Shown: in pieces, positions 2 through 24,327 of the stretch
Position numbering within the stretch: position 1 is the stretch's first letter
Layout: each line of letters opens with the position of its first letter
Source of the DNA: a virus
Taxonomy: Duplodnaviria > Heunggongvirae > Uroviricota > Caudoviricetes
Length of the DNA stretch: 27,633 nt
Direction: 5' to 3' (one strand)
Virus record (IMG/VR): IMGVR_UViG_2630968911_000005
Program-made: the position numbers and the translations under genes
Notes under the pieces: generated by a model
Told to the model about the DNA's origin: nothing
The model's input: the letters and a program-made list of their open reading frames with translations, nothing else
Database searches by the model: none

Positions 2-1297
2 TTAATTTTTCATTGCTTCGTTATGGGGCATGGTTGGGGCAAACTCGCTTAACTGTGTATTTAACAAAGCTACCTGTGCATTATTGTTTTCAGACATCCA
101 TTTTCCGTATACCTGAAATACCATTTGCGCATCTGCATGGCCCATCTGGTTTGCTATAAATGCCGGGTTAGCACCAGCTGTCAGCGACCAGCAGGCATAA
201 GTATGTCTCGACTGATATGATTTTCGATGGCGGAGTCCGGCACGTTTTATCGCTGCGTCCCACATCTGCCTTATTGAGTCAACGGTAAAATGGTCACCAT
301 AATTTTTTACTCTCGCTGACACTTCAGGTTGAAAAACAAAGGTGCATTTATGTTTTTCTGTTCTGCCATACTCTCTGAGGTGAACATCAATGATATGCTC
401 TTTGCTCAGTCTCGTTAATGTCATCTGACTCCGGAGAGCGTCGATTGCTGGCTTAATAAGATGAATGACCCGATTGGTTCCCGCCTGTGTTTTTGGTACC
501 GTGAAACGGTCTTTTGCTAAATTTCTCCTGATCATCATTGTTCCATTTTTCAGATCTATGTCCTCCCATCCAAGTGCACACAGCTCACCAGGGCGAACGC
601 CAGTATAAACAGAAACACACCATAAATTTTTGGCTTGCTGATTTCTGCACGCATCGATAAGACGGATGAATTCCTCCCGCGAAAGAGGATCCGGAATGGT
701 TCTTGATTCCTTTAATGGCGAGATCCCCTTAAACGGGTTATCTGCCAGGTAACCGTTATCAACACCAAACTGGAACACGGCGTTAAGATTTGTCATGTAA
801 TTATTTACAGTTACAGCCGATCTCCCTGGTTGTGTAACAATATAGTTACTTTTGGGGATCTGGTATCCAGTCAGTAGCTCTTTACGAACCTCCAGTAATT
901 TTTCTTTATTAATCGATGAGGCAAGATTTTTTTCACCGATTATGCTCAGGATATTTTTGATGACGGCACGGTATGTGTTGAGTGATGTTTTTGCGACTTC
1001 AGTTTCTTTCAGTGCCAGAAATTTTTCAGCCAGTTCTTTTATGGTTAAATCTTGTCGAGTCTCACCAAATTTTTCCAGATTGCGTGAGGAGGGAAACTGT
1101 TTTGCATAGTCGAAAACACCAGTTTTTATTGCGTAACAAACAGAGGCGCGTAGCTCACCTGCAACGCGCCTGTTTTTTGCTGTGTCAGGAACCCCCAGGT
1201 TTTCCCTGACTCTTACGCCTTTATAAACAAACCAGATACGTAATTTCCCTCCATGGTTTTCCACGCCTGTCGGATATTTCATTTCAACTTCTCTCAT
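2..1297 (-). CDS. Phage tyrosine integrase (site-specific recombinase), apparently intact; alternative start at 1282 (MKYPTG...)
   Basis: 431-aa ORF with stop at 2-4. C-terminal region has tyrosine-recombinase-like motifs (SRHTYA ... MGHA ... VYGKW). Lies next to an Xis-like gene at the prophage end. Confidence 0.9.
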   Translation of the reverse strand: MREVEMKYPTGVENHGGKLRIWFVYKGVRVRENLGVPDTAKNRRVAGELRASVCYAIKTGVFDYAKQFPSSRNLEKFGETRQDLTIKELAEKFLALKETEVAKTSLNTYRAVIKNILSIIGEKNLASSINKEKLLEVRKELLTGYQIPKSNYIVTQPGRSAVTVNNYMTNLNAVFQFGVDNGYLADNPFKGISPLKESRTIPDPLSREEFIRLIDACRNQQAKNLWCVSVYTGVRPGELCALGWEDIDLKNGTMMIRRNLAKDRFTVPKTQAGTNRVIHLIKPAIDALRSQMTLTRLSKEHIIDVHLREYGRTEKHKCTFVFQPEVSARVKNYGDHFTVDSIRQMWDAAIKRAGLRHRKSYQSRHTYACWSLTAGANPAFIANQMGHADAQMVFQVYGKWMSENNNAQVALLNTQLSEFAPTMPHNEAMKN

Positions 1298-1316: not shown

Positions 1317-1568
1317 TCAAGTAAGATGACGTCTTGGTCTTGCTGATGCCTGGCGCTCAATCCAGCGATCAATTTCTTCCAGGTTGTAAAAGCATGGACT
1401 GTTATCCCATGGCATACCGTCATGAGCGACATGCTTATATTCCCTTCCTTCCATAAACGATTTTTCCCGGGCCTTTTTTAACGTACCTTTTTTTATTCCT
1501 TTCAGCGCAATTAACTGCTCTTCGGATACCCATTTGCCGGGAGAGACAATCATGATTACTTCGCTCAT
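1317..1568 (-). CDS. Excisionase-like DNA-binding protein (Xis)
   Basis: 83-aa ORF directly upstream of int on the same strand. Contains GREYKHV, resembling the GREYLFH segment of lambda Xis as recalled. Confidence 0.65.
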   Translation of the reverse strand: MSEVIMIVSPGKWVSEEQLIALKGIKKGTLKKAREKSFMEGREYKHVAHDGMPWDNSPCFYNLEEIDRWIERQASARPRRHLT

Positions 1569-1640: not shown

Positions 1641-2183
1641 TTAAGAATCAGCCTGACTCGGGATCAGTTTTTGCCAGATAACTGAAACGTATTTTGCCAG
1701 GTAACGGGCGTCATCAAGTGCATTATGGCGCTCACCTTCGAATGGAATAGCCGTTCTGGCATCGAAGTCTATGGCTTTCCCCAGCTCAACGATTGTGCGT
1801 ACATCGCGATCGTTGTAGTAACGCCACGGGCAGGGGATCCCCTGCCGTTCGTATGAACGGCGCAAAATCGTGTTGTCGAAGTTGGCTCCATTTCCCCAAA
1901 CCTGAACAAAAAATTCACCGGAGTTTTCGTCGATAAATTCTCGCAATTGTAACAGTGCATCATCTAACGGGATTTCATCGGTCATAATGGCAGATTGCGC
2001 TTCGCGTGATTGCTTAAGCCACCATTTAATGGTGTCCCGATCAATGACTCCGCCAGCAGTTTCCAGATCGATAGTCTTACTAAATTCCGGTCCCATATCT
2101 CCGGTTTGCGGATCGAAAAATATTGCACCTATTGAGATGATCGGGGCATCAGGATTTTTTCCCATGGTTTCAAGGTCGATCAT
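1641..2183 (-). CDS. DnaQ-like DEDDh 3'-5' exonuclease; start uncertain (longest ORF runs to 2333, overlapping the upstream gene)
   Basis: Exo I motif MIDLETMG and Exo III motif HNALDDARY are present. The internal ATG at 2181-2183 avoids overlap with the upstream gene, whose stop is at 2231. Confidence 0.8.
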   Translation of the reverse strand: MIDLETMGKNPDAPIISIGAIFFDPQTGDMGPEFSKTIDLETAGGVIDRDTIKWWLKQSREAQSAIMTDEIPLDDALLQLREFIDENSGEFFVQVWGNGANFDNTILRRSYERQGIPCPWRYYNDRDVRTIVELGKAIDFDARTAIPFEGERHNALDDARYLAKYVSVIWQKLIPSQADS

Positions 2184-2230
2184 TAGATGGTCACACGTCC
2201 TGCTGGTGGATGTGATTTCGTGATGACCGT

Positions 2231-4111
2231 TCACCTTAATTGGGTGATCTGCCGTCTCGCCAGTTTCATTATCGCTATTGTGATGCTGATTGCCGCCAGT
2301 GTTCTCCTTGTGTGGATGTTCAGCGCCTTCCATTTCCTCCGGATCATCTCCTGAACTTCAACCTGATACTCTTCATCGAATGTTTCTTGGTATGTTGCGT
2401 CGCCCATCACCGCGCCACAATCAGGGCAGTTGCCGCCGCCGGTCTGACCGCAGGCGGTGCAGGCTTTTTCCACTTCCTGTTGCGCCACTGGTTCAGGCTG
2501 TTTCGTTTCTGGCTCGTTTTGTAACGCATTTGGACTGTTTTGTTCCGCTTTTTGGTAGTTCCGTTCCGATTCATGCTGGTTCTGGTTCACAGAATCGCGG
2601 GTCTGGAGCCCCTTAACCCATTTCGGATCATTCGGGTCACTAATCCCTTCAACAAATTCACCACGTGATGCAGCAAGCAACTTATCGGCGTCAGGCTGGC
2701 TGATATTGGCTGCCTGCATAATTTTGTTTACTTCGTCAGCGGTAACTTTTATCGGCTCTGGTTGTTCTGAATCTTCAGCGGTATCTACATTTTGCGGTAA
2801 GCCCGTGTATGTGCCATTTTTTCGGGCAAAATATTCTTCTTTTGTGATTTCAGTGGCGCCAGCAGCCAGTGCCTTATCCAGACCAGAGAGTTTGTTTGCG
2901 CGACCGTATTTTTCTCCGTCCTTATCTGCGAAGAGGAAATAGAACGGCCCCTCACGCTCTACAGATGGTTCAGCTTCCGGCGCGGTTTCATTTTTTGGGA
3001 TATCAGATACCTCAGTTTCCACTGCATCAGTTTGTGTTTCTGATGACTGGAGAACATCAACAGTGCCCAGGTCTGTTTCTTCATTCTCAAACACGCCCTT
3101 TGTCGTCAGGTATTCGCAGATATATTTGTTCAGTGCTACGGGATCTTTGTGAATGTCGATCGGACGCTCACGGACAAGGCCAAAAATAGTTTGGCGGTCG
3201 TAGCGAAGGGCATCAGGCTGTTTGCGCATTGATGCCGAGATACGCTTCCAGTCTTCGCGGTCGTTGTCGATAACTTCTTTTTTTGCCCAGCGATGGATGC
3301 TGCCGTCAATGTTTCCGGCATCCACATCACTAGGCCAGAGAGCGTAGGCCAGTTCGTCATCCAGTGTTTTCCATGTCTGCTTGTATTCGCGATGAATGGC
3401 AGCAATGACCGGGCTGATTTTTCCTGTTGAATTTTCAGTGTACTGTTGATTGGCTCTGGCGCGGGCGAGATCAACAACAGACGTGTATTTTCCGGTTTCC
3501 TTGCGTTCACCTTCGCGACGTTTTTTCCAGATGCGCATCTCTGCCTGAATTTCGGGCCATTTAGCACCAGGAATACATTTATGCTTAACCCACCCAATGG
3601 CGTGCAACTTAAGCTCCGGATACATGGCGTTAACTTCTGGCATTTTCATCAACGCTTCAACGATATGTCCGTCGAATGTTGCCATGTCTTCCTGCAACAA
3701 TTCCTGTGCGCTAATAACCATATCAACGGTGATGTTTTCACATGTGTCGAACTTAACCATGACAGCGTTCTGTACTTCAGGGGCCAGCTTGTCAAAAGTG
3801 ACGTTCATCGGATCGGATTCAGTCTCAACCGGGACAAAAGAAGCAGACTCCTCATCCCAGCGGTTTTCCTGCATATATTCAGCATCCCATGAATCGAGGG
3901 CAGGGCGGGGTATGCCAGGTTTATCCTCGCAGACAATAAATTTATAAGCGCAGTCCTGAGCAGCCGGATAATGTTCCAGGAATTGCCAGTGAAATTTTGC
4001 TCGAGCACGGCGTTCGTCGCCAGCTTCAATGGCTGTGGCTACAGCCACAGCGCCTTCTTCCCTTGTTGCCAGTTCGTCAGGAATAGCGGCGCAAATAAAG
4101 ACTTTACTCAT
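2231..4111 (-). CDS. Large early-operon protein, RecE (exonuclease VIII) N-terminal-region-like, ending in a Cys4 zinc ribbon; no recognisable nuclease domain
   Basis: Long ORF; ATG at 4109-4111 (MSKVF...) is preceded by GAGG 9 nt upstream. Internal segment KLLAASRGEFVEGISDPNDPKWVKGLQTRD resembles RecE as recalled. C-terminus has CTACGQTGGGNCPDCG. The acidic central region is low complexity. Confidence 0.6.
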   Translation of the reverse strand: MSKVFICAAIPDELATREEGAVAVATAIEAGDERRARAKFHWQFLEHYPAAQDCAYKFIVCEDKPGIPRPALDSWDAEYMQENRWDEESASFVPVETESDPMNVTFDKLAPEVQNAVMVKFDTCENITVDMVISAQELLQEDMATFDGHIVEALMKMPEVNAMYPELKLHAIGWVKHKCIPGAKWPEIQAEMRIWKKRREGERKETGKYTSVVDLARARANQQYTENSTGKISPVIAAIHREYKQTWKTLDDELAYALWPSDVDAGNIDGSIHRWAKKEVIDNDREDWKRISASMRKQPDALRYDRQTIFGLVRERPIDIHKDPVALNKYICEYLTTKGVFENEETDLGTVDVLQSSETQTDAVETEVSDIPKNETAPEAEPSVEREGPFYFLFADKDGEKYGRANKLSGLDKALAAGATEITKEEYFARKNGTYTGLPQNVDTAEDSEQPEPIKVTADEVNKIMQAANISQPDADKLLAASRGEFVEGISDPNDPKWVKGLQTRDSVNQNQHESERNYQKAEQNSPNALQNEPETKQPEPVAQQEVEKACTACGQTGGGNCPDCGAVMGDATYQETFDEEYQVEVQEMIRRKWKALNIHTRRTLAAISITIAIMKLARRQITQLR

Positions 4112-4203
4112 TTGTTTTAACCTCATGACAGATTTAAGGATGAACAAATCCCTGCCATTGCTGGCATATAAGAATGAAACCGGATATTTATTACGGAACT
4201 GTT

Positions 4204-4395
4204 TTAAAGACCTGCCGGGATTTCGATATTATCCTGGTGAATAACTTTATCGACCGGGTAACAGTTACCGGGAATTTTCTGTTCGGTTGCTGCAGTCATA
4301 CACTCCTGCATTGTCCTGTGAACACTGACTGCAATATCAACTGGCTCTCCGGAAACAAGAAAAACTGTCAGAACAAGCACAAATGCTGAATTCAT
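4204..4395 (-). CDS. Small hypothetical protein with N-terminal signal-peptide-like hydrophobic segment
   Basis: 63-aa ORF (MNSAFVLVLTVFLVSG...). Its ATG overlaps the stop of the upstream gene (ATGA, 4392-4395), suggesting translational coupling. Confidence 0.5.
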   Translation of the reverse strand: MNSAFVLVLTVFLVSGEPVDIAVSVHRTMQECMTAATEQKIPGNCYPVDKVIHQDNIEIPAGL

Positions 4396-4580
4396 TGTGC
4401 ACATCCTTTTGGCATCAGACGTAAACGAGCCAGCATTGAAACAATGCATATTTTATTTAATAGCTCCCGTTCTTGTTTTCTCTTGTTAATGGCATCTTCA
4501 GTAAATACTGGGTTACTGATAGTGACACCAATTTCAAAACAACCTTCAGACGTATTAACGTTTGGTAATAACGTTTTCAT
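4392..4580 (-). CDS. Small hypothetical early-region protein (62 aa)
   Basis: ATG at 4578-4580 with GAGGA about 9 nt upstream. Sits where lambdoid phages carry kil/cIII-like small genes. Function not recognisable. Confidence 0.5.
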   Translation of the reverse strand: MKTLLPNVNTSEGCFEIGVTISNPVFTEDAINKRKQERELLNKICIVSMLARLRLMPKGCAQ

Positions 4581-4663
4581 TATCGCGTCCTCAACAATGA
4601 ATTTTGTGATGCAGTGCCTGGTGCCTCCAGGTGACGTTAACCAGTTAACAATTAACGCCGGAT

Positions 4664-4993
4664 ATGTGCTGTGGCAGCCGCATGTTCTGGTTCGATAAGT
4701 CTGACGAACGGGCGATATTCAGCGATATCAGAAAAGAAGGATACACATTACGCAATGGGAGACGCTTGATTATCAGCCCTGACATTATCGCAGATTTTCG
4801 TGCATTATCATTTGCAGACGCATCTTTTTCGATGGTTGTATTAGACCCTCCGCATCTTGAGAGTGTTGGTGATAACGCCTGGATGGGAAAGAAATATGGA
4901 CGGCTGAATAAAGATGCCTGGCGTGATGATTCGCGACAGAGATTTAAAGAAGCCTTTCGGGTGTTGAGGCCGCACGGCGTTCTGATTTTTTAA
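4664..4993 (+). pseudogene. Truncated DNA N6-adenine/N4-cytosine methyltransferase fragment (DPPH motif)
   Basis: ORF contains SFSMVVLDPPH followed by RVLRPHGVLIF, the pattern of amino-methyltransferase motif IV and a downstream block. It stops right after, with no continuation in any frame. Confidence 0.5.
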
Positions 4994-5415
4994 TGGAATG
5001 AAACGCAAATACCGGTAAGCCAGATTCTGGCACTGACAGACAGAAAACCTGTTATCTGTCAACGAACAGGGAAAAAACGATAAAACCCACTGGATTATTT
5101 TTATGAAAGAGGCATCCAGTGAGTAGATTCGTAAGGCTACAGATACGTATATCTGAATAATTAAATTCAGTTCTGTAAATAAAATTTAATCCTTAACCGG
5201 ATGGATTTCTGCACCCTCAGAACATCAGGAGGCCGCCCGAAAGGGCGGTAGTGAAATGCGAAAGTTCAAAATTATTATTGAAACGGGAATAGCTGGTGGA
5301 GATTTTGAGGATGTATTCGAAGTGGACGATGACGCAACACCTGAGGAAATTCATGACGGAGCATAAGAAATTTTCTTTAACTACTGCAATTACTCATACC
5401 ACGAAATAAAAGACG

Positions 5416-6325: not shown

Positions 6326-6659
6326 ATACAGCGAACTCCATTGGTTTAGTTGGATATTTACTGTGCTGGACAAAAACGGTTTGCGGGGAAATCTTAGTTA
6401 AGTAGAATGACTGCGGGTGCTTGAGGCTATCTGCCTCGGGCATGGACACCAACGGCAGATAGAGAAAAGCCCCAGTTAACATTACGCGTCCTGCAAGACG
6501 CTTAACATTAATCTGAGGCCAATTTCATGCTAGACACATGTAGGTTAGCCTCTTACGTGCCGAAAGGCACGGAGAAGCAGGCTATTGTTAACACCAAGCT
6601 GTAATGTCCCCTTTGAACCATTCTAAAATGTCCCCAGACAATTCTCTGGGGGATTTTTC

Positions 6660-7973
6660 ATGATCAAAGAGACTGTTACGATGAGTCATAAGGAACTCCA
6701 CCGACTTCAGATTATTCAGGAACAAGCTGCGGCACGCATTGGCATTTCTATTCGGCAGGTTAAACGTCTGGTGCAACGGTATAGAAATGAAGGGCCTTCT
6801 GGTCTGGTTTCCCACCGACGTGGAAAGCGTCCTAATAATTCCTTTTCTACTGAATTCAGAGCAACAGTAATTTCACTCCTCAAAGGCCGTTACGCTGATT
6901 TTGGACCTACGTTTGCGTGCGAAAAATTGCGCGAGATACACGGTTTATCTTTATCCGTTGAAACTCTCAGAAAGTGGATGATAGAAGAGGGGTTATGGCG
7001 TGAACGCCGTCGTAAAATTGCCCGTATATATCAACGCCGCATGCGACGACCATCTTACGGTGAACTGATCCAGATTGATGGCTCACCTCATGACTGGTTT
7101 GAAAATCGAGGCCCCAGATGTACACTGATCGTTTTCATTGATGATGCCACCAGTGCGTTGATGGCGTTGCGTTTTGTGCCTGCTGAAACAACCCGGGCTT
7201 ACATGGAAACCCTCCGGGGTTACCTTAATGATCATGGCGTACCGCTCGCTCTCTACTCTGATAGACACAGTATATTCAGGGTAAATAACCCAGAGCGGGA
7301 AGGTGAGCTGACCCAGTTCACTCGTGCGATAAAGACACTGGGCATCGAGCCAATCCATGCCAACAGCCCGCAGGCAAAAGGGCGGGTAGAGCGCGCCAAT
7401 CAGACACTACAGGACAGGCTGGTCAAAGAAATGCGGCTTCAGAATATCAGTGATATTGAAACAGCAAATGCATGGTTGCCGACCTTTATTGAAGCCTATA
7501 ACAACCGGTTCGCTACGTCGCCTCGTACTACTGATAATGCTCATCTTGATGTGCACCATTCTGAAGAGGAACTGGGTTATATCTTCAGCCTACAGGCGAA
7601 GCGCGTTCTGTCTAAAAATCTCACTTTCCAGTACAAAAGCAGTGCGTTTCAGGTACGCAGTGAGGGCCGGGGATATCGACTTAGGCATTCGGTTGTTACT
7701 GTATGCGAGAACTTTGACGGTGAAATTAACGTTCTGTATGACGGGAAAGCGCTGGGCTGGGAAAAGTATGTTGATGGCCCGGAGCCTATACCACTGGATG
7801 ATGAAAAGAGTGTCCATGAACGAGTGGATAATGCCCGTATTGATTTACGCTCAAAATACTATGTTAAACCTAAAGCTGACCATCCCTGGCTTACGCGCCG
7901 AACGCAAAGTCATCAGCAAGTTAAGCCCCCGAAGTTACCTAAAAAGAAGCCTGATCCCGATAAAAAAGATTGA
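6660..7973 (+). CDS. DDE transposase/integrase, rve superfamily with N-terminal HTH; IS481-family or ISNCY(IS1202-group)-like
   Basis: 437-aa ORF. N-terminal pattern RQVKRLVQRYRNEGPSGLVSHRRGKRP; catalytic D (IQIDGS), D (LYSDRHSIF) and E (GRVERANQTLQ). RBS GGGGGA upstream of ATG. Confidence 0.8.
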   Translation: MIKETVTMSHKELHRLQIIQEQAAARIGISIRQVKRLVQRYRNEGPSGLVSHRRGKRPNNSFSTEFRATVISLLKGRYADFGPTFACEKLREIHGLSLSVETLRKWMIEEGLWRERRRKIARIYQRRMRRPSYGELIQIDGSPHDWFENRGPRCTLIVFIDDATSALMALRFVPAETTRAYMETLRGYLNDHGVPLALYSDRHSIFRVNNPEREGELTQFTRAIKTLGIEPIHANSPQAKGRVERANQTLQDRLVKEMRLQNISDIETANAWLPTFIEAYNNRFATSPRTTDNAHLDVHHSEEELGYIFSLQAKRVLSKNLTFQYKSSAFQVRSEGRGYRLRHSVVTVCENFDGEINVLYDGKALGWEKYVDGPEPIPLDDEKSVHERVDNARIDLRSKYYVKPKADHPWLTRRTQSHQQVKPPKLPKKKPDPDKKD

Positions 7974-8005
7974 AACCAAGATCGATTCGGTTGAGTGCAT
8001 TGATC

Positions 8006-8896
8006 CTACCCACGTAATATGGACACAGGCCTAAGCGAGGTTCTGGTTTTCAATTGTTCCGGACTGAGGCCGCCACACCAACTGTGCCGCCGCCACCGAT
8101 TGTAATCACATTCGATATAATTAAATACCGTTGCCCGCATTATTTCCCGGCTGATAAAGTGTTTTCCATGGATACATTCCACTTTCAGCGAATGAAAGAA
8201 GCTTTCCACGCAGGCATTATCGTAGCAGCAACCTTTTGCGCTCATACTTCCACGCAGATTATGCCGCTTCAGTTGCGCCTGATAATCTGCTGAACAGTAC
8301 TGGCCTCCACGGTCCGTGTGAACGATAACGTTCCGGGGCCTCTTACGCCGCCACAGCGCCATCTGCAGGGCATCGCAGGCCAGTTGCGCCGTCATGCGTG
8401 GCGACATTGACCAGCCAATAACGGCACGTGACCACAGGTCAATGACCACTGCCAGATACAGCCAGCCTTCATCTGTACGTAAGTACGTGATGTCTCCTGC
8501 CCACTTCTGGTTCGGGCCACTGGCGTAAAAATCCTGCTCCAACAGATTTTCTGACACAGGCAGGCCGTGTGCGCGGTAGCTGACCGGGCTGAACTTCCGG
8601 GAGGCCTTTGCCCTCAGTCCCTGACGGCGCAGGCTTGCCGCCACGGTTTTTACGTTAAAGGGGTAACCCTGAGCACGCAGTTCATCCGTCAGGCGTGGGG
8701 CACCGTAACGCTGTTTTGACCGGGTAAAAGCCGCGAGGACAACGCTGTCGCAGTGTTGGCGGAACTGCTGACGCGTGCTTATCCTTGTCCGCCGCTGACA
8801 CCACGTATACCAGCCGCTGCGGGCCACCCGGAGCACGCGGCACATTGCTTTGATGCTGAACTCAGCCTGATGTTTTTCAATAAAGACATACTTCAT
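8006..8896 (-). CDS. insF: IS3 transposase OrfB (InsF), DDE integrase core
   Basis: Protein matches IS3 InsF as recalled ([21 protein letters not shown] ... DRGGQYCS ...) except at the extreme C-terminus. Confidence 0.9.
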
Positions 8897-9192
8897 TTCA
8901 GGCGCTTCGCGAAGTATGTCGCGGCCTTTTGGAGGATAGCCAGCTCTTCATCCCGTTCTGCCAGCTGGCGTTTGAGACGTGCAATCTCGGTAGACATCTC
9001 CAGTTCACGTTCAGAAGACGTCTGCTGATTTTGCTGTTTACTGCGCCAGTTGTAGAGCAGTGATTCATACAGGCTGAGTTCACGGGCTGCGGCAGTAACA
9101 CCGATGCGTTCAGCAAGCTTCAGGGCTTCACTGCGAAATTCAGGCGAATGCTGTTTACGGGGTTTTTTACTGGTTGATACTGTTTTTGTCAT
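8893..9192 (-). CDS. insE: IS3 transposase OrfA (InsE), HTH protein
   Basis: [32 protein letters not shown]... matches IS3 OrfA as recalled. The ORF track begins 3 codons upstream (9201). Confidence 0.9.
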
Positions 9193-9669
9193 GTGAGTCA
9201 CCTCTGACTGAGAGTTTACTCACTTAGCCGCGTGTCCACTATTGCTGGGTAAGATCACATATCCATTCATAGGGTAGATTCTTAAGTCGCGTTTCTGGTG
9301 TTCATTTTCGGGTGGTTTGTTACTTGTTTTACCGGGGATATGCCAGAAACGCGCTGAGTCAGTCTGGGCGGTGCGCGTAATGAGGCGTTATGGTAAATAG
9401 CCTATGCTAATGTCCGCTAAGAGCAAGAAGCGGAAGTTGGCAGTTTTGTGGACTGTCCCCACAAAAGTGACTACAGAAATAGTTGCAATTCATAATTGAT
9501 CATGGGTTGTCAGTTAAACTCGTGGCGATTTAAATAGACTAATTGGGAGTGCGTCCATTACTTATATCTTGTAATGTTAACTATCAGAAATGATACAAAG
9601 ATAATATGTCTTTAAAGAAAAGGCTGATGGCGAAAAGTGGCCCGATGAGGGCCACAATACGGCTGTCAC

Positions 9670-11504: not shown

Positions 11505-11756
11505 ATGATGAACATCGAAGAACTGCGTAAAATTTTTTGTGAAGATGGCCTCTATGCTGTGTGCGTTGAAAATGGAAATCTTGTTAGTCATTACCGCATT
11601 ATGTGTTTGCGAAAGAATGGGGCTGCGTTAATTAATTTTGTGGATGCTCGGGTCACGGACGGATTTATCTTGCGCGAAGGTGAGTTTGTCACTTCATTAC
11701 AGGCATTGAAAGAGATCGGAATAAAAGCTGGCTTTTCTGCTTTTTCAGGAGAATAA
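11505..11756 (+). CDS. rem: Rem protein (function unknown)
   Basis: 83-aa product matches K-12 Rem as recalled (MMNIEELRKIFCEDGLYAVC...). Confidence 0.85.
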   Translation: MMNIEELRKIFCEDGLYAVCVENGNLVSHYRIMCLRKNGAALINFVDARVTDGFILREGEFVTSLQALKEIGIKAGFSAFSGE

Positions 11757-14552: not shown

Positions 14553-14852
14553 AAAAATTCCTTAATACTGATAACTTGGCGCACTATACACACGTTCCTG
14601 AAGAAAGCTATAGTTTTTTGATGGGGTTGAAGATGGCTGGATGTCTAAAATAAACATTGCTTCATATGTTCAACTATGCGTTAATGATTGCGTCGGTTTG
14701 AAGAACAGACGATATACGAAGTAGTTTACTAAAGCAGTTCTCATTTCAGGTGTTATTCACTTATTCCTTCTTTGAGTCTCTCCAATTAAGTACGAAGTCG
14801 TTTCTGTTATGCAAACCATTTATGCCGAAAGGCTCAAGTTAAGGAATGTAGA

Positions 14853-15068
14853 ATGTCAAATAAAATGACTGGTTTAGTAAAATGGTTTAACGCTGATAAA
14901 GGTTTCGGCTTTATTTCTCCTGTTGATGGTAGTAAAGATGTGTTTGTGCATTTTTCTGCGATTCAGAATGATAATTATCGAACCTTATTTGAAGGTCAAA
15001 AGGTTACCTTCTCTATAGAGAGTGGTGCTAAAGGTCCTGCAGCAGCAAATGTCATCATTACTGATTAA
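14853..15068 (+). CDS. cspB: Cold-shock protein CspB
   Basis: 71-aa product with RNP motifs (KGFGFI, VFVHF). Long AT-rich 5' leader upstream. Confidence 0.92.
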
Positions 15069-15347
15069 AATTCATCGCTCGTCTGTATACGATAACGAAG
15101 AAGGCTGATGCCTGAGTAGAGATACGGACAGAGTAGTGAATATTGGATCTCTTTAATAAAAAGTAAGGAGGTCCAATACATGAAACAATGGCTAGCATAT
15201 TTGGCAAAATCTTAATCAGGAAAAGTATGCTAACCATTGTGGTGAAGTGCAGGTTTGCTGCATGAATAGTTTTACAGCAGAAGCTAACTGCTGGCATGGC
15301 AAAACAAAGTGCGTAAGTGGATGACTCCCACAAAAAGCACCACAATC

Positions 15348-17377: not shown

Positions 17378-17739
17378 GGTAATATTAAATCGGAACATTT
17401 ACATCGCGGAATGTAAAATTTAAATAAAAAGGACTCTTCCATGAGCCAAAATTCCTGAAATCTTAAGGGTAAGATAAAAGGTCTTAATCAGAATGACACG
17501 TTTTATTAATAAATAAAGCTATTCTTTCATTGCTGTGTTTTTCTTTACAAAAGTAATCCTTGCTATGGGTGGTTAATCATGCGTTAATGGTGTTCTGGTT
17601 TGTTACAAATTTATCTGAAGCAGTCATTGTTATAATTTTATTATTTGTACCTCTTGAGATTTCCTTGTTGGTTTTTCTCTCTGATATTTTTTTTCGGACC
17701 ATTCTGCCCAAGGGCTAATTTCTTCAAAAGGTAATAATT

Positions 17740-17952
17740 ATGTCTAACAAAATGACTGGTTTAGTGAAATGGTTTAACCCTGAAAAAGGTTTTGGTTTCA
17801 TCACGCCGAAAGATGGCAGCAAAGATGTGTTTGTCCATTTCTCAGCAATTCAGAGCAACGATTTCAAAACATTAACTGAGAATCAGGAAGTTGAATTTGG
17901 TATTGAGAACGGACCTAAAGGTCCTGCCGCTGTTCATGTAGTGGCGCTTTGA
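17740..17952 (+). CDS. cspI: Cold-shock protein CspI
   Basis: 70-aa cold-shock-domain protein ([34 protein letters not shown]...). RBS AAGGTAA. About 350-nt AT-rich leader. Confidence 0.92.
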
Positions 17953-18156
17953 GGTAGACAATATTACAAACCATATTCACTTTAGATGCCCGTGTTGTCA
18001 TGGTTCCCAGTATAGAACATCATCTTTTGATGTTTCTGACATGAATCCTTTCGGGGCAAAATGTATCTTTTGTAAATCAATGATGATTACATTTGATAAT
18101 ATTTCACAATACTTAAATGCCAGCCGTCTGTCGTTGGATTTAAAAAAGTGAAAATG

Positions 18157-20040: not shown

Positions 20041-20562
20041 ATGGAAGTCAACAAAAAGCAGCTGGCTGACATTTTCGGTGCGAGTATCCGTACCATTCAG
20101 AACTGGCAGGAACAGGGAATGCCCGTTCTGCGAGGCGGTGGCAAGGGTAATGAGGTGCTTTATGACTCTGCCGCCGTTATAAGATGGTATGCCGAAAGGG
20201 ATGCTGAAATTGAGAACGAAAAGCTGCGCCGGGAAGTTGAAGAACTGCGGCGGGCCAGCGAGACAGATCTCCAGCCAGGGACTATTGAGTACGAACGCCA
20301 TCGACTTACGCGTGCGCAGGCCGACGCACAGGAGCTGAAAAATGCCAGAGACTCCGCTGAAGTGGTGGAAACCGCATTCTGTACTTTCGTGCTGTCGCGG
20401 ATCGCAGGTGAAATTGCCAGTATTCTCGACGGGATCCCCCTGTCGGTGCAGCGGCGTTTTCCGGAACTGGAAAACCGACATGTTGATTTCCTGAAACGGG
20501 ATATCATCAAAGCCATGAACAAAGCAGCCGCGCTGGATGAACTGATACAGCATGGACGTTGA
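20041..20562 (+). CDS. nohQ: Terminase small subunit Nu1 homolog; C-terminal about 11 residues replaced at a deletion junction
   Basis: [42 protein letters not shown]... matches lambda Nu1 through ...AAALDELI, then ends QHGR. Confidence 0.9.
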
Positions 20563-23752: not shown

Positions 23753-24327
23753 TGGCATTCAGAATGAGTGAACAACCACGGACCATAACAATTTATAATC
23801 TGCTGGCCGGAACTAATGAATTTATTGGTGAAGGTGATGCATATATTCCGCCTCATACAGGTCTGCCAGCAAACAGTACCGATATTGCACCGCCAGATAT
23901 TCCGGCTGGCTTCGTGGCTGTTTTCAACAGTGATGAGTCATCGTGGCATCTCGTTGAAGATCATCGGGGTAAAACGGTTTATGACGTGGCTTCCGGCGAC
24001 GCGTTATTTATTTCTGAACTCGGTCCGTTACCGAAAAATGTTACCTGGTTATCGCCGGAAGGGGAGTTTCAGAAGTGGAACGGCACAGCCTGGGTGAAGG
24101 ATACGGAAGCAGAAAAACTGTTCCGGATCCGGGAGGCGGAAGAAACAAAAAACAACCTGATGCAGGTAGCCAGTGAGCATATTGCGCCGCTTCAGGATGC
24201 TGCAGATCTGGAAATTGCAACGGAGGAAGAAATCTCGTTGCTGGAAGCATGGAAAAAGTATCGGGTATTGCTGAACCGTGTTGATACGTCAACTGCACAG
24301 GATATTGAATGGCCAGCACTGCCGTAG
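23752..24327 (+). CDS. tfaQ: Tail fibre assembly protein (Tfa)
   Basis: 191-aa ORF overlapping the stf stop (TAATG). N-terminus [26 protein letters not shown]. Confidence 0.85.

Follow-up and report, generated by a model that had tools for sequence, protein, structure and literature searches.

Two small overlapping open reading frames (ORFs) in a stretch of viral DNA of 27,633 nucleotides, which is called the window here, raise the question of what they encode and whether they are expressed in their present surroundings. A sequence-only reading had described them as encoding a 62-aa basic protein and a 63-aa protein with a signal-peptide-like N terminus at the head of an early-left operon, and it could not match either of them to a known family. 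They are almost certainly the dicB and ydfD genes of a Qin-type cryptic lambdoid prophage, which a deletion has most likely orphaned from their promoter. Both genes are already known; they are textbook cryptic-prophage toxins, and the copy found here is identical to that of Escherichia coli K-12. The practical value of the analysis lies in a correction of the annotation: the genes are neither unknown nor the natural head of an operon.

The identity of the two proteins is given by family searches and by direct comparison. DicB matches the Pfam family PF05358 with residues 1-62 of 62 (136.8 bits, E = 1.9e-40; cut-off 27) and the NCBIfam model NF049927 (CellDivInhibDicB, "cell division inhibition protein DicB"; 132.8 bits, cut-off 100). 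YdfD matches the Pfam family PF07358 (DUF1482) over profile positions 1-57 of 57 (91.1 bits, E = 3.9e-26; cut-off 25). The earlier statement that neither ORF could be matched to a known family was thus wrong, as a clear match, which had been named beforehand as grounds for refutation, was obtained for both. A search of the NCBIfam models with YdfD gave no match, and sequence searches of the PDB with DicB and YdfD returned no solved relatives at E<=1. Both proteins show 100% amino-acid identity to their counterparts in the Qin prophage of E. coli K-12 MG1655, i.e., DicB (b1575) and YdfD (b1576), and the DNA itself is 100% identical to that of K-12 across positions 3345-4664 of the window (blastn). 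In RefSeq, identical DNA is labeled "dicB: cell division inhibition protein DicB" and "ydfD: lysis protein YdfD". The module is widespread: of 5426 complete E. coli genomes searched by megablast with positions 4100-4700 as the query, 4486 contain it, the median copy number being two. The resemblance to Qin of K-12 extends beyond the 62-aa DicB and 63-aa YdfD proteins to the ribosome-binding site of dicB, the proximal 84 nt of its leader, the position of ydfD downstream with the same ATGA overlap and between dicB and a RecE-like exonuclease gene, and the chromosomal site beside rspB. In K-12, however, dicB sits behind dicBp-ydfABC-dicF under the control of DicA and DicC, all of which is deleted in the window. 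The two prophages also differ downstream of ydfD, where ydfE is cut off by IS2 in K-12, whereas the exonuclease gene of the window is full-length and frameshifted by 1 nt.

The physical description of the ORFs given earlier was borne out in all its parts (Table 1). Both lie on the minus strand with the lengths reported; DicB is indeed basic, with a computed pI of 9.02 and nine K+R vs. six D+E residues, and residues 1-15 of YdfD (AFVLVLTVFLVSG) have a mean Kyte-Doolittle hydrophobicity of 2.11, which makes the N terminus signal-peptide-like or anchor-like. The ATGA overlap and the good ribosome-binding site of the first ORF were likewise found. Conservation in related prophages, the lack of which had been named as a ground for refutation, is evident as well: the pair and its 4-nt overlap are kept in vB_EcoS-640R1 (97% amino-acid identity for DicB and 89% for YdfD; overlap ATGA) and down to 61% and 48% identity, respectively, in PPompW_14744 (overlap GTGA); in both, the second gene begins 4 nt ahead of the dicB stop codon. 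Since the HMM matches are full-length and far above the curated cut-offs, since the identity to K-12 is 100%, and since the pair with its 4-nt overlap is conserved, dicB and ydfD are to be regarded as real genes, and chance ORFs may be considered excluded. Translational coupling from dicB to ydfD is plausible, as the NTGA overlap is conserved between orthologous pairs.

Table 1. Coordinates of the features discussed, in positions of the window.
Feature	Position	Strand	Description	Basis
Integrase	2..1297	minus	End of leftward operon, by rspB in matching genomes	ORF list, annotation of matching genomes
Excisionase	1317..1568	minus	End of leftward operon	ORF list, annotation of matching genomes
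RecE-like exonuclease gene (ydfE equivalent)	1641..4111	minus	Downstream of ydfD	"exonuclease" in E. coli 1303 annotation
ydfD, lysis protein YdfD (DUF1482)	4204..4395	minus	63 aa, ATG start	
ATGA start/stop overlap, dicB/ydfD	4392..4395	minus	Plus strand reads TCAT	
dicB, cell-division inhibition protein DicB	4392..4580	minus	62 aa, ATG start, TGA stop	
Shine-Dalgarno-like AAGGA of ydfD	4404..4408	minus	Inside dicB 3' end, 8 nt before ATG	
Shine-Dalgarno GAGGA of dicB	4588..4592	minus	7 nt before ATG	Sequence read-out
Leader hairpins H1 + H2, upstream of dicB	4617..4659	minus	3' part of STnc100-like (Rfam RF02076) RNA	
H2	4617-4631	minus	5-bp stem, invariant loop AGGCA	
H1	4633-4659	minus	8-bp stem, invariant 11-nt loop TTGTTAACTGG	
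Deletion junction	4664..4665	not assigned		blastn vs. K-12 and CFSAN061772
Class I SAM-dependent methyltransferase gene	4682..4993	plus		RefSeq annotation of identical E. coli 1303 DNA, ORF list

Two other views of the ORFs themselves can be weighed at this point. That they encode uncharacterized early small proteins, with a family and a function that are unknown, has next to no chance of being correct: the one point in its favor is the missing NCBIfam match for the second ORF, whereas each protein, over its full length, matches a curated Pfam family and is identical to a K-12 protein with published functions (PMC6832061, PMC8835842). Nothing argues against the identification as DicB and YdfD, which, at 100% sequence identity, should be essentially irrefutable. 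It is also scarcely credible that the true second product is a longer one. The mechanical ORF list contains an 81-aa version of ydfD, which starts at an in-frame ATG at 4449 and runs without an intervening stop up to 4395; if this were the genuine product, the ATGA overlap would be irrelevant. However, the match to the DUF1482 profile begins only at residue 22 of this longer form, and the short 63-aa version is the one used by RefSeq and in published work (PMC8835842). Moreover, stop codons break the extension in the PPompW orthologue, in which the start in the NTGA overlap is kept. The extended form was rejected because the extension is not conserved, and its interruption by stops in PPompW indicates that the 63-aa YdfD is the conserved product.

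The surroundings of the pair explain where it comes from. Judged by its sequence, the window represents a cryptic lambdoid prophage of the Qin type, inserted beside rspB and near-identical to the copy in E. coli 1303, with 99.88% identity over 20.5 kb to the element located beside rspB in that strain. Downstream of dicB and ydfD, the minus strand continues with genes for a RecE-like exonuclease, an excisionase, and an integrase. In relatives with an intact arrangement, i.e., phage PhiR42_1 (from ECOR13), vB_EcoS-640R1, and the PPompW prophages, the order is cII, cro (dicC), cI (dicA), ydfA-B-C, dicF, dicB, ydfD, exonuclease, xis, and int. The promoter of the operon, dicBp, is located upstream of ydfA; DicA represses it, the Qin antirepressor Rem lifts the repression, and no promoter internal to the operon has come to light (PMC10448788). 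The pair was earlier placed at the head of an early-left operon, and the operon was recognized correctly, as it is the PL-equivalent leftward operon of a lambdoid prophage. The head position, in contrast, did not hold, since ydfA-ydfB-ydfC-dicF and dicBp precede dicB in the relatives (PMC10448788); dicB and ydfD are distal members of this leftward early operon and not its natural head. Further downstream, one nucleotide of the exonuclease gene is missing after position 2348 in comparison with E. coli 1303, so that the gene is divided into ORFs 1641..2333 and 2231..4147. The frameshifted gene is either a pseudogene or the result of a sequencing error.

The pair looks like the head of an operon in the window because a deletion has removed everything upstream of position 4664. 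Homology to Qin of K-12 and to PhiR42_1 ends at this position, 84 nt upstream of dicB, and dicF, ydfCBA, dicBp, dicA, dicC, cII, O, and LygF/DUF977 are missing at the junction. The small RNA gene dicF gave no match to Rfam RF00039 in the window, neither at the gathering threshold nor at E<=1, although the same search does detect DicF in K-12, PhiR42_1, and Evi; by blastn-short, the longest match to dicF in the window is 11 nt. Similarly, tblastn with DicA, DicC, YdfA, and YdfC of K-12 found nothing anywhere in the window. The gene immediately beyond the junction, encoding a methyltransferase, is a rightward-operon gene in PhiR42_1, where it comes after O and LygF; here, it stands head-to-head with dicB. 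The simplest reading would be a single deletion of ~4 kb that starts just downstream of dicF and extends through LygF/DUF977. Four of 5426 complete E. coli genomes (1303, G4/9, PigCaeca_2, and EC26) have precisely this junction, and a variant that keeps 320 bp more of DUF977 is found in four others, which brings both forms together to 8/5426. The gene for the Rem antirepressor, at about positions 11505-11756, is kept and is 100% identical; it remains even though its target, DicA, is gone from the prophage of the window. A Qin variant that kept the toxin pair and Rem and lost DicA, the promoter, and DicF shows how a cryptic prophage decays around toxic genes.

What the two proteins do is taken from published work on the identical proteins. 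DicB binds MinC and, with the help of ZipA, directs it to the septal (Z) ring, where MinC depolymerizes FtsZ, resulting in filamentation (PMC6832061, PMC4967827, PMC10448788). The DicB-MinC complex also inhibits ManYZ in the inner membrane and thereby blocks the entry of DNA of lambda-like phages that depend on ManYZ (PMC6832061). The earlier suggestion that small genes at this position might be host-takeover or cell-division-inhibitor factors was right for DicB, in view of its family match and its identity to the characterized K-12 protein. When YdfD is expressed, cells lyse rapidly, provided that they are dividing; co-expressed DicB or SulA protects them from this lysis (PMC8835842). YdfD was reported to bind and inhibit IspG, an enzyme of the MEP isoprenoid pathway, and lysis was rescued by overexpression of ispG or by HMBPP (PMC8835842); this mechanism is based on pull-down, SEC, ITC, FRET, and rescue data from one laboratory (PMC8835842). 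It sits awkwardly with the signal-peptide-like N terminus of YdfD and with its two invariant cysteines. A functional parallel to DicB is offered by Kil of phage lambda and KilR of Rac, which are also small, toxic products of PL-type operons, encoded in the interval from the immunity region to exo/recE, and which, like DicB, inhibit the formation of the FtsZ ring (PMC3961180). However, Kil and DicB have no sequence relationship, and Kil acts on FtsZ in a ZipA-dependent manner without MinC, whereas DicB works through MinC.

There is, nevertheless, something that dicB and kil have in common, i.e., a structured leader. The part of the dicB leader at about positions 4596-4664 is 81-100% identical, over 55-69 nt, to sequences in phages that lack dicB. 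There, a distance of 8-38 nt separates the leader from the gene that follows, which is either a Rac-type kil gene (in Shigella phage 75/02 Stx, Evi, and vB_EcoS-683R6) or tciA/terB (in P7 and D6); Rac-type kil is thus located behind the same conserved STnc100-like hairpins as dicB. The coordinates of the leader in the comparison loci are 2501-2568 (L004), 2501-2553 (L005), 2001-2070 (L007), 2001-2052 (L008), 2001-2059 (L009), and 2001-2060 (L010). In an alignment of eight leaders, both hairpins are conserved and their loops are invariant; 99% of the cells are paired, and four pairs show compensatory changes, compared with 19-47% paired in slid controls. When scored against the STnc100 model (RF02076), all seven comparison loci remain below the gathering threshold of 47 with 32.9-43 bits, and the window, with 20.9 bits, is below it as well. 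In the alignment of P7 to STnc100, both hairpins fall on the consensus structure of the model. The likeness to STnc100/PasD therefore has two sides: H1 and H2 correspond to the 3' half of the consensus structure, with compensatory changes, but the scores stay under the gathering threshold, and the window has lost the 5' half of the element to the deletion. The most fitting description of the leader is that of a truncated STnc100 relative, within or close to this described family, rather than a scored member. STnc100 has been related to the PasD prophage sRNAs in a 2026 preprint (doi 10.64898/2026.05.13.724894). A nut/boxB-type site, which had been considered because of the 5-bp stem with a 5-nt loop, was dropped as an interpretation, since the element aligns to STnc100 and is also present in P1-type phages, which lack an N protein. 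Upstream of the leader, P7 (L005, 2241-2325) and D6 (L008, 1735-1819) each contain a tRNA-Sec-like Rfam match, with 46.6 and 43.1 bits, respectively, against a threshold of 47; the D6 annotation lists this stretch as an unusual tRNA-Ser whose anticodon is UGA.

The leader looks portable, i.e., like a structured 5' leader common to different division-inhibitor genes, and its presence before dicB, kil, and tciA could interest researchers working on STnc100/PasD. In K-12, the minimum-free-energy fold of the dicF-dicB spacer predicts a helix of ~28 bp that encloses H1 and H2 and whose 3' strand enters the Shine-Dalgarno region of dicB. The 5' strand of this predicted long helix is deleted in the window. 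Speculatively, the loss of the helix might alter the translation of dicB.

Whether the pair is expressed in the window depends on transcription. In the intact element, dicBp drives ydfABC-dicF-dicB-ydfD-exo-xis-int, with DicA acting as the repressor and Rem relieving the repression. In the window, the deletion of ~4 kb ending 84 nt upstream of dicB has removed dicBp, dicA, dicC, ydfABC, and dicF. A consensus scan of positions 4000-5400 found five sigma-70-like promoter sites, where 3.0 +/- 1.6 were expected, which is at chance level, and in the same scan there were no promoter-like sites on the minus strand within 200 nt upstream of dicB. As dicBp is deleted and no better-than-chance promoter is found upstream, the pair appears to be promoter-less. 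Most likely, it is intact yet transcriptionally orphaned and would be silent or transcribed by fortuitous read-through only. We make no claim for a replacement promoter upstream of dicB, as the candidate sites are at chance level and at a distance of more than 200 nt. The consensus scan might have missed a promoter in the methyltransferase gene that is weak or not of the sigma-70 type, and an older study suggesting a promoter upstream of dicB is cited in PMC10448788.

A new promoter at or near the junction would change this picture, since the pair could then be expressed, with low-level, unregulated DicB and a ManYZ-based exclusion of phages as the outcome. Such a situation appears quite improbable. 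Neither the ORFs nor their ribosome-binding sites show any damage, but the identity to K-12 points to a recent junction, so that intactness is uninformative on selection. Two weak sigma-70-like sites on the minus strand, at 4832-4804 and 4811-4784, could be named as candidates, yet promoter-like sites are only as frequent in this region as chance predicts. The deletion did take the 5' strand of the predicted leader helix, which in K-12 is predicted to pair with sequence that abuts and partly covers the Shine-Dalgarno sequence of dicB; on the other hand, dicB and ydfD are toxic when unregulated (PMC10448788, PMC8835842), and the junction is rare. If transcription does enter at the junction, there would be a small E. 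coli lineage in which DicB is naturally deregulated and phages that depend on ManYZ are constitutively excluded, which we consider very improbable. Were it true, the STnc100-like leader would be a translational gate common to the unrelated division-inhibitor genes dicB, kil, and tciA. A different reservation concerns the site of action of YdfD. Its N terminus could be a cleavable or anchoring export signal, in which case the protein would act in the envelope, with the C-terminal domain and its two conserved cysteines working at the periplasmic face or within the membrane, as other single-gene lysis proteins do, and IspG would not be the primary target. The hydrophobic stretch of residues 4-15 has the length of the h-region of a signal peptide, it is followed by the invariant residues G16-E17-P18, and a V-S-G motif is present, so that V-S-G/E fits the -3/-1 rule. 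Furthermore, C32 and C45 are invariant in orthologues down to 48% identity, and the division-dependent lysis resembles that caused by inhibitors of cell-wall precursor supply (PMC8835842). However, residues 1-26 contain neither K nor R, so that the n-region is without positive charge, an unusual trait in a Sec signal; in addition, IspG binding is supported by published pull-down, SEC, ITC, and FRET data, and lysis was rescued by ispG overexpression or HMBPP (PMC8835842). An envelope-acting YdfD is, on balance, unlikely, and inhibition of IspG, as published, is the preferred account of its activity.

Elsewhere in the window, several features were noted beside the locus under study. At position 20546, the window is without ~2.8 kb of the nohA/terminase/capsid remnant region that is present in E. 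coli 1303 (L003, 35990-38821); this is a further deletion in a decaying prophage. An IS3-family insertion occupies positions 8001-9257 beside ydfW (ORFs 8006..8896 and 8893..9201, minus strand); it is present in E. coli 1303 and is not found in K-12 or CFSAN061772, and the 20 bases that follow it in the window (9258-9277) are extra relative to E. coli 1303. A hok/sok-type element on the plus strand (6415-6586; Rfam sok, 104 bits) and, after it, an ISNCY-family transposase remnant (6660-7973, plus strand) lie in the stretch that has taken the place of the immunity region. Finally, the plus strand contains, at 14692-15084, 17594-17979, and 24095-24293, two 5' UTRs of the cspA thermoregulator type, which belong to cspB and cspI of Qin, and a match to IS009 RNA in the tail-fibre region; all are ordinary Qin content.
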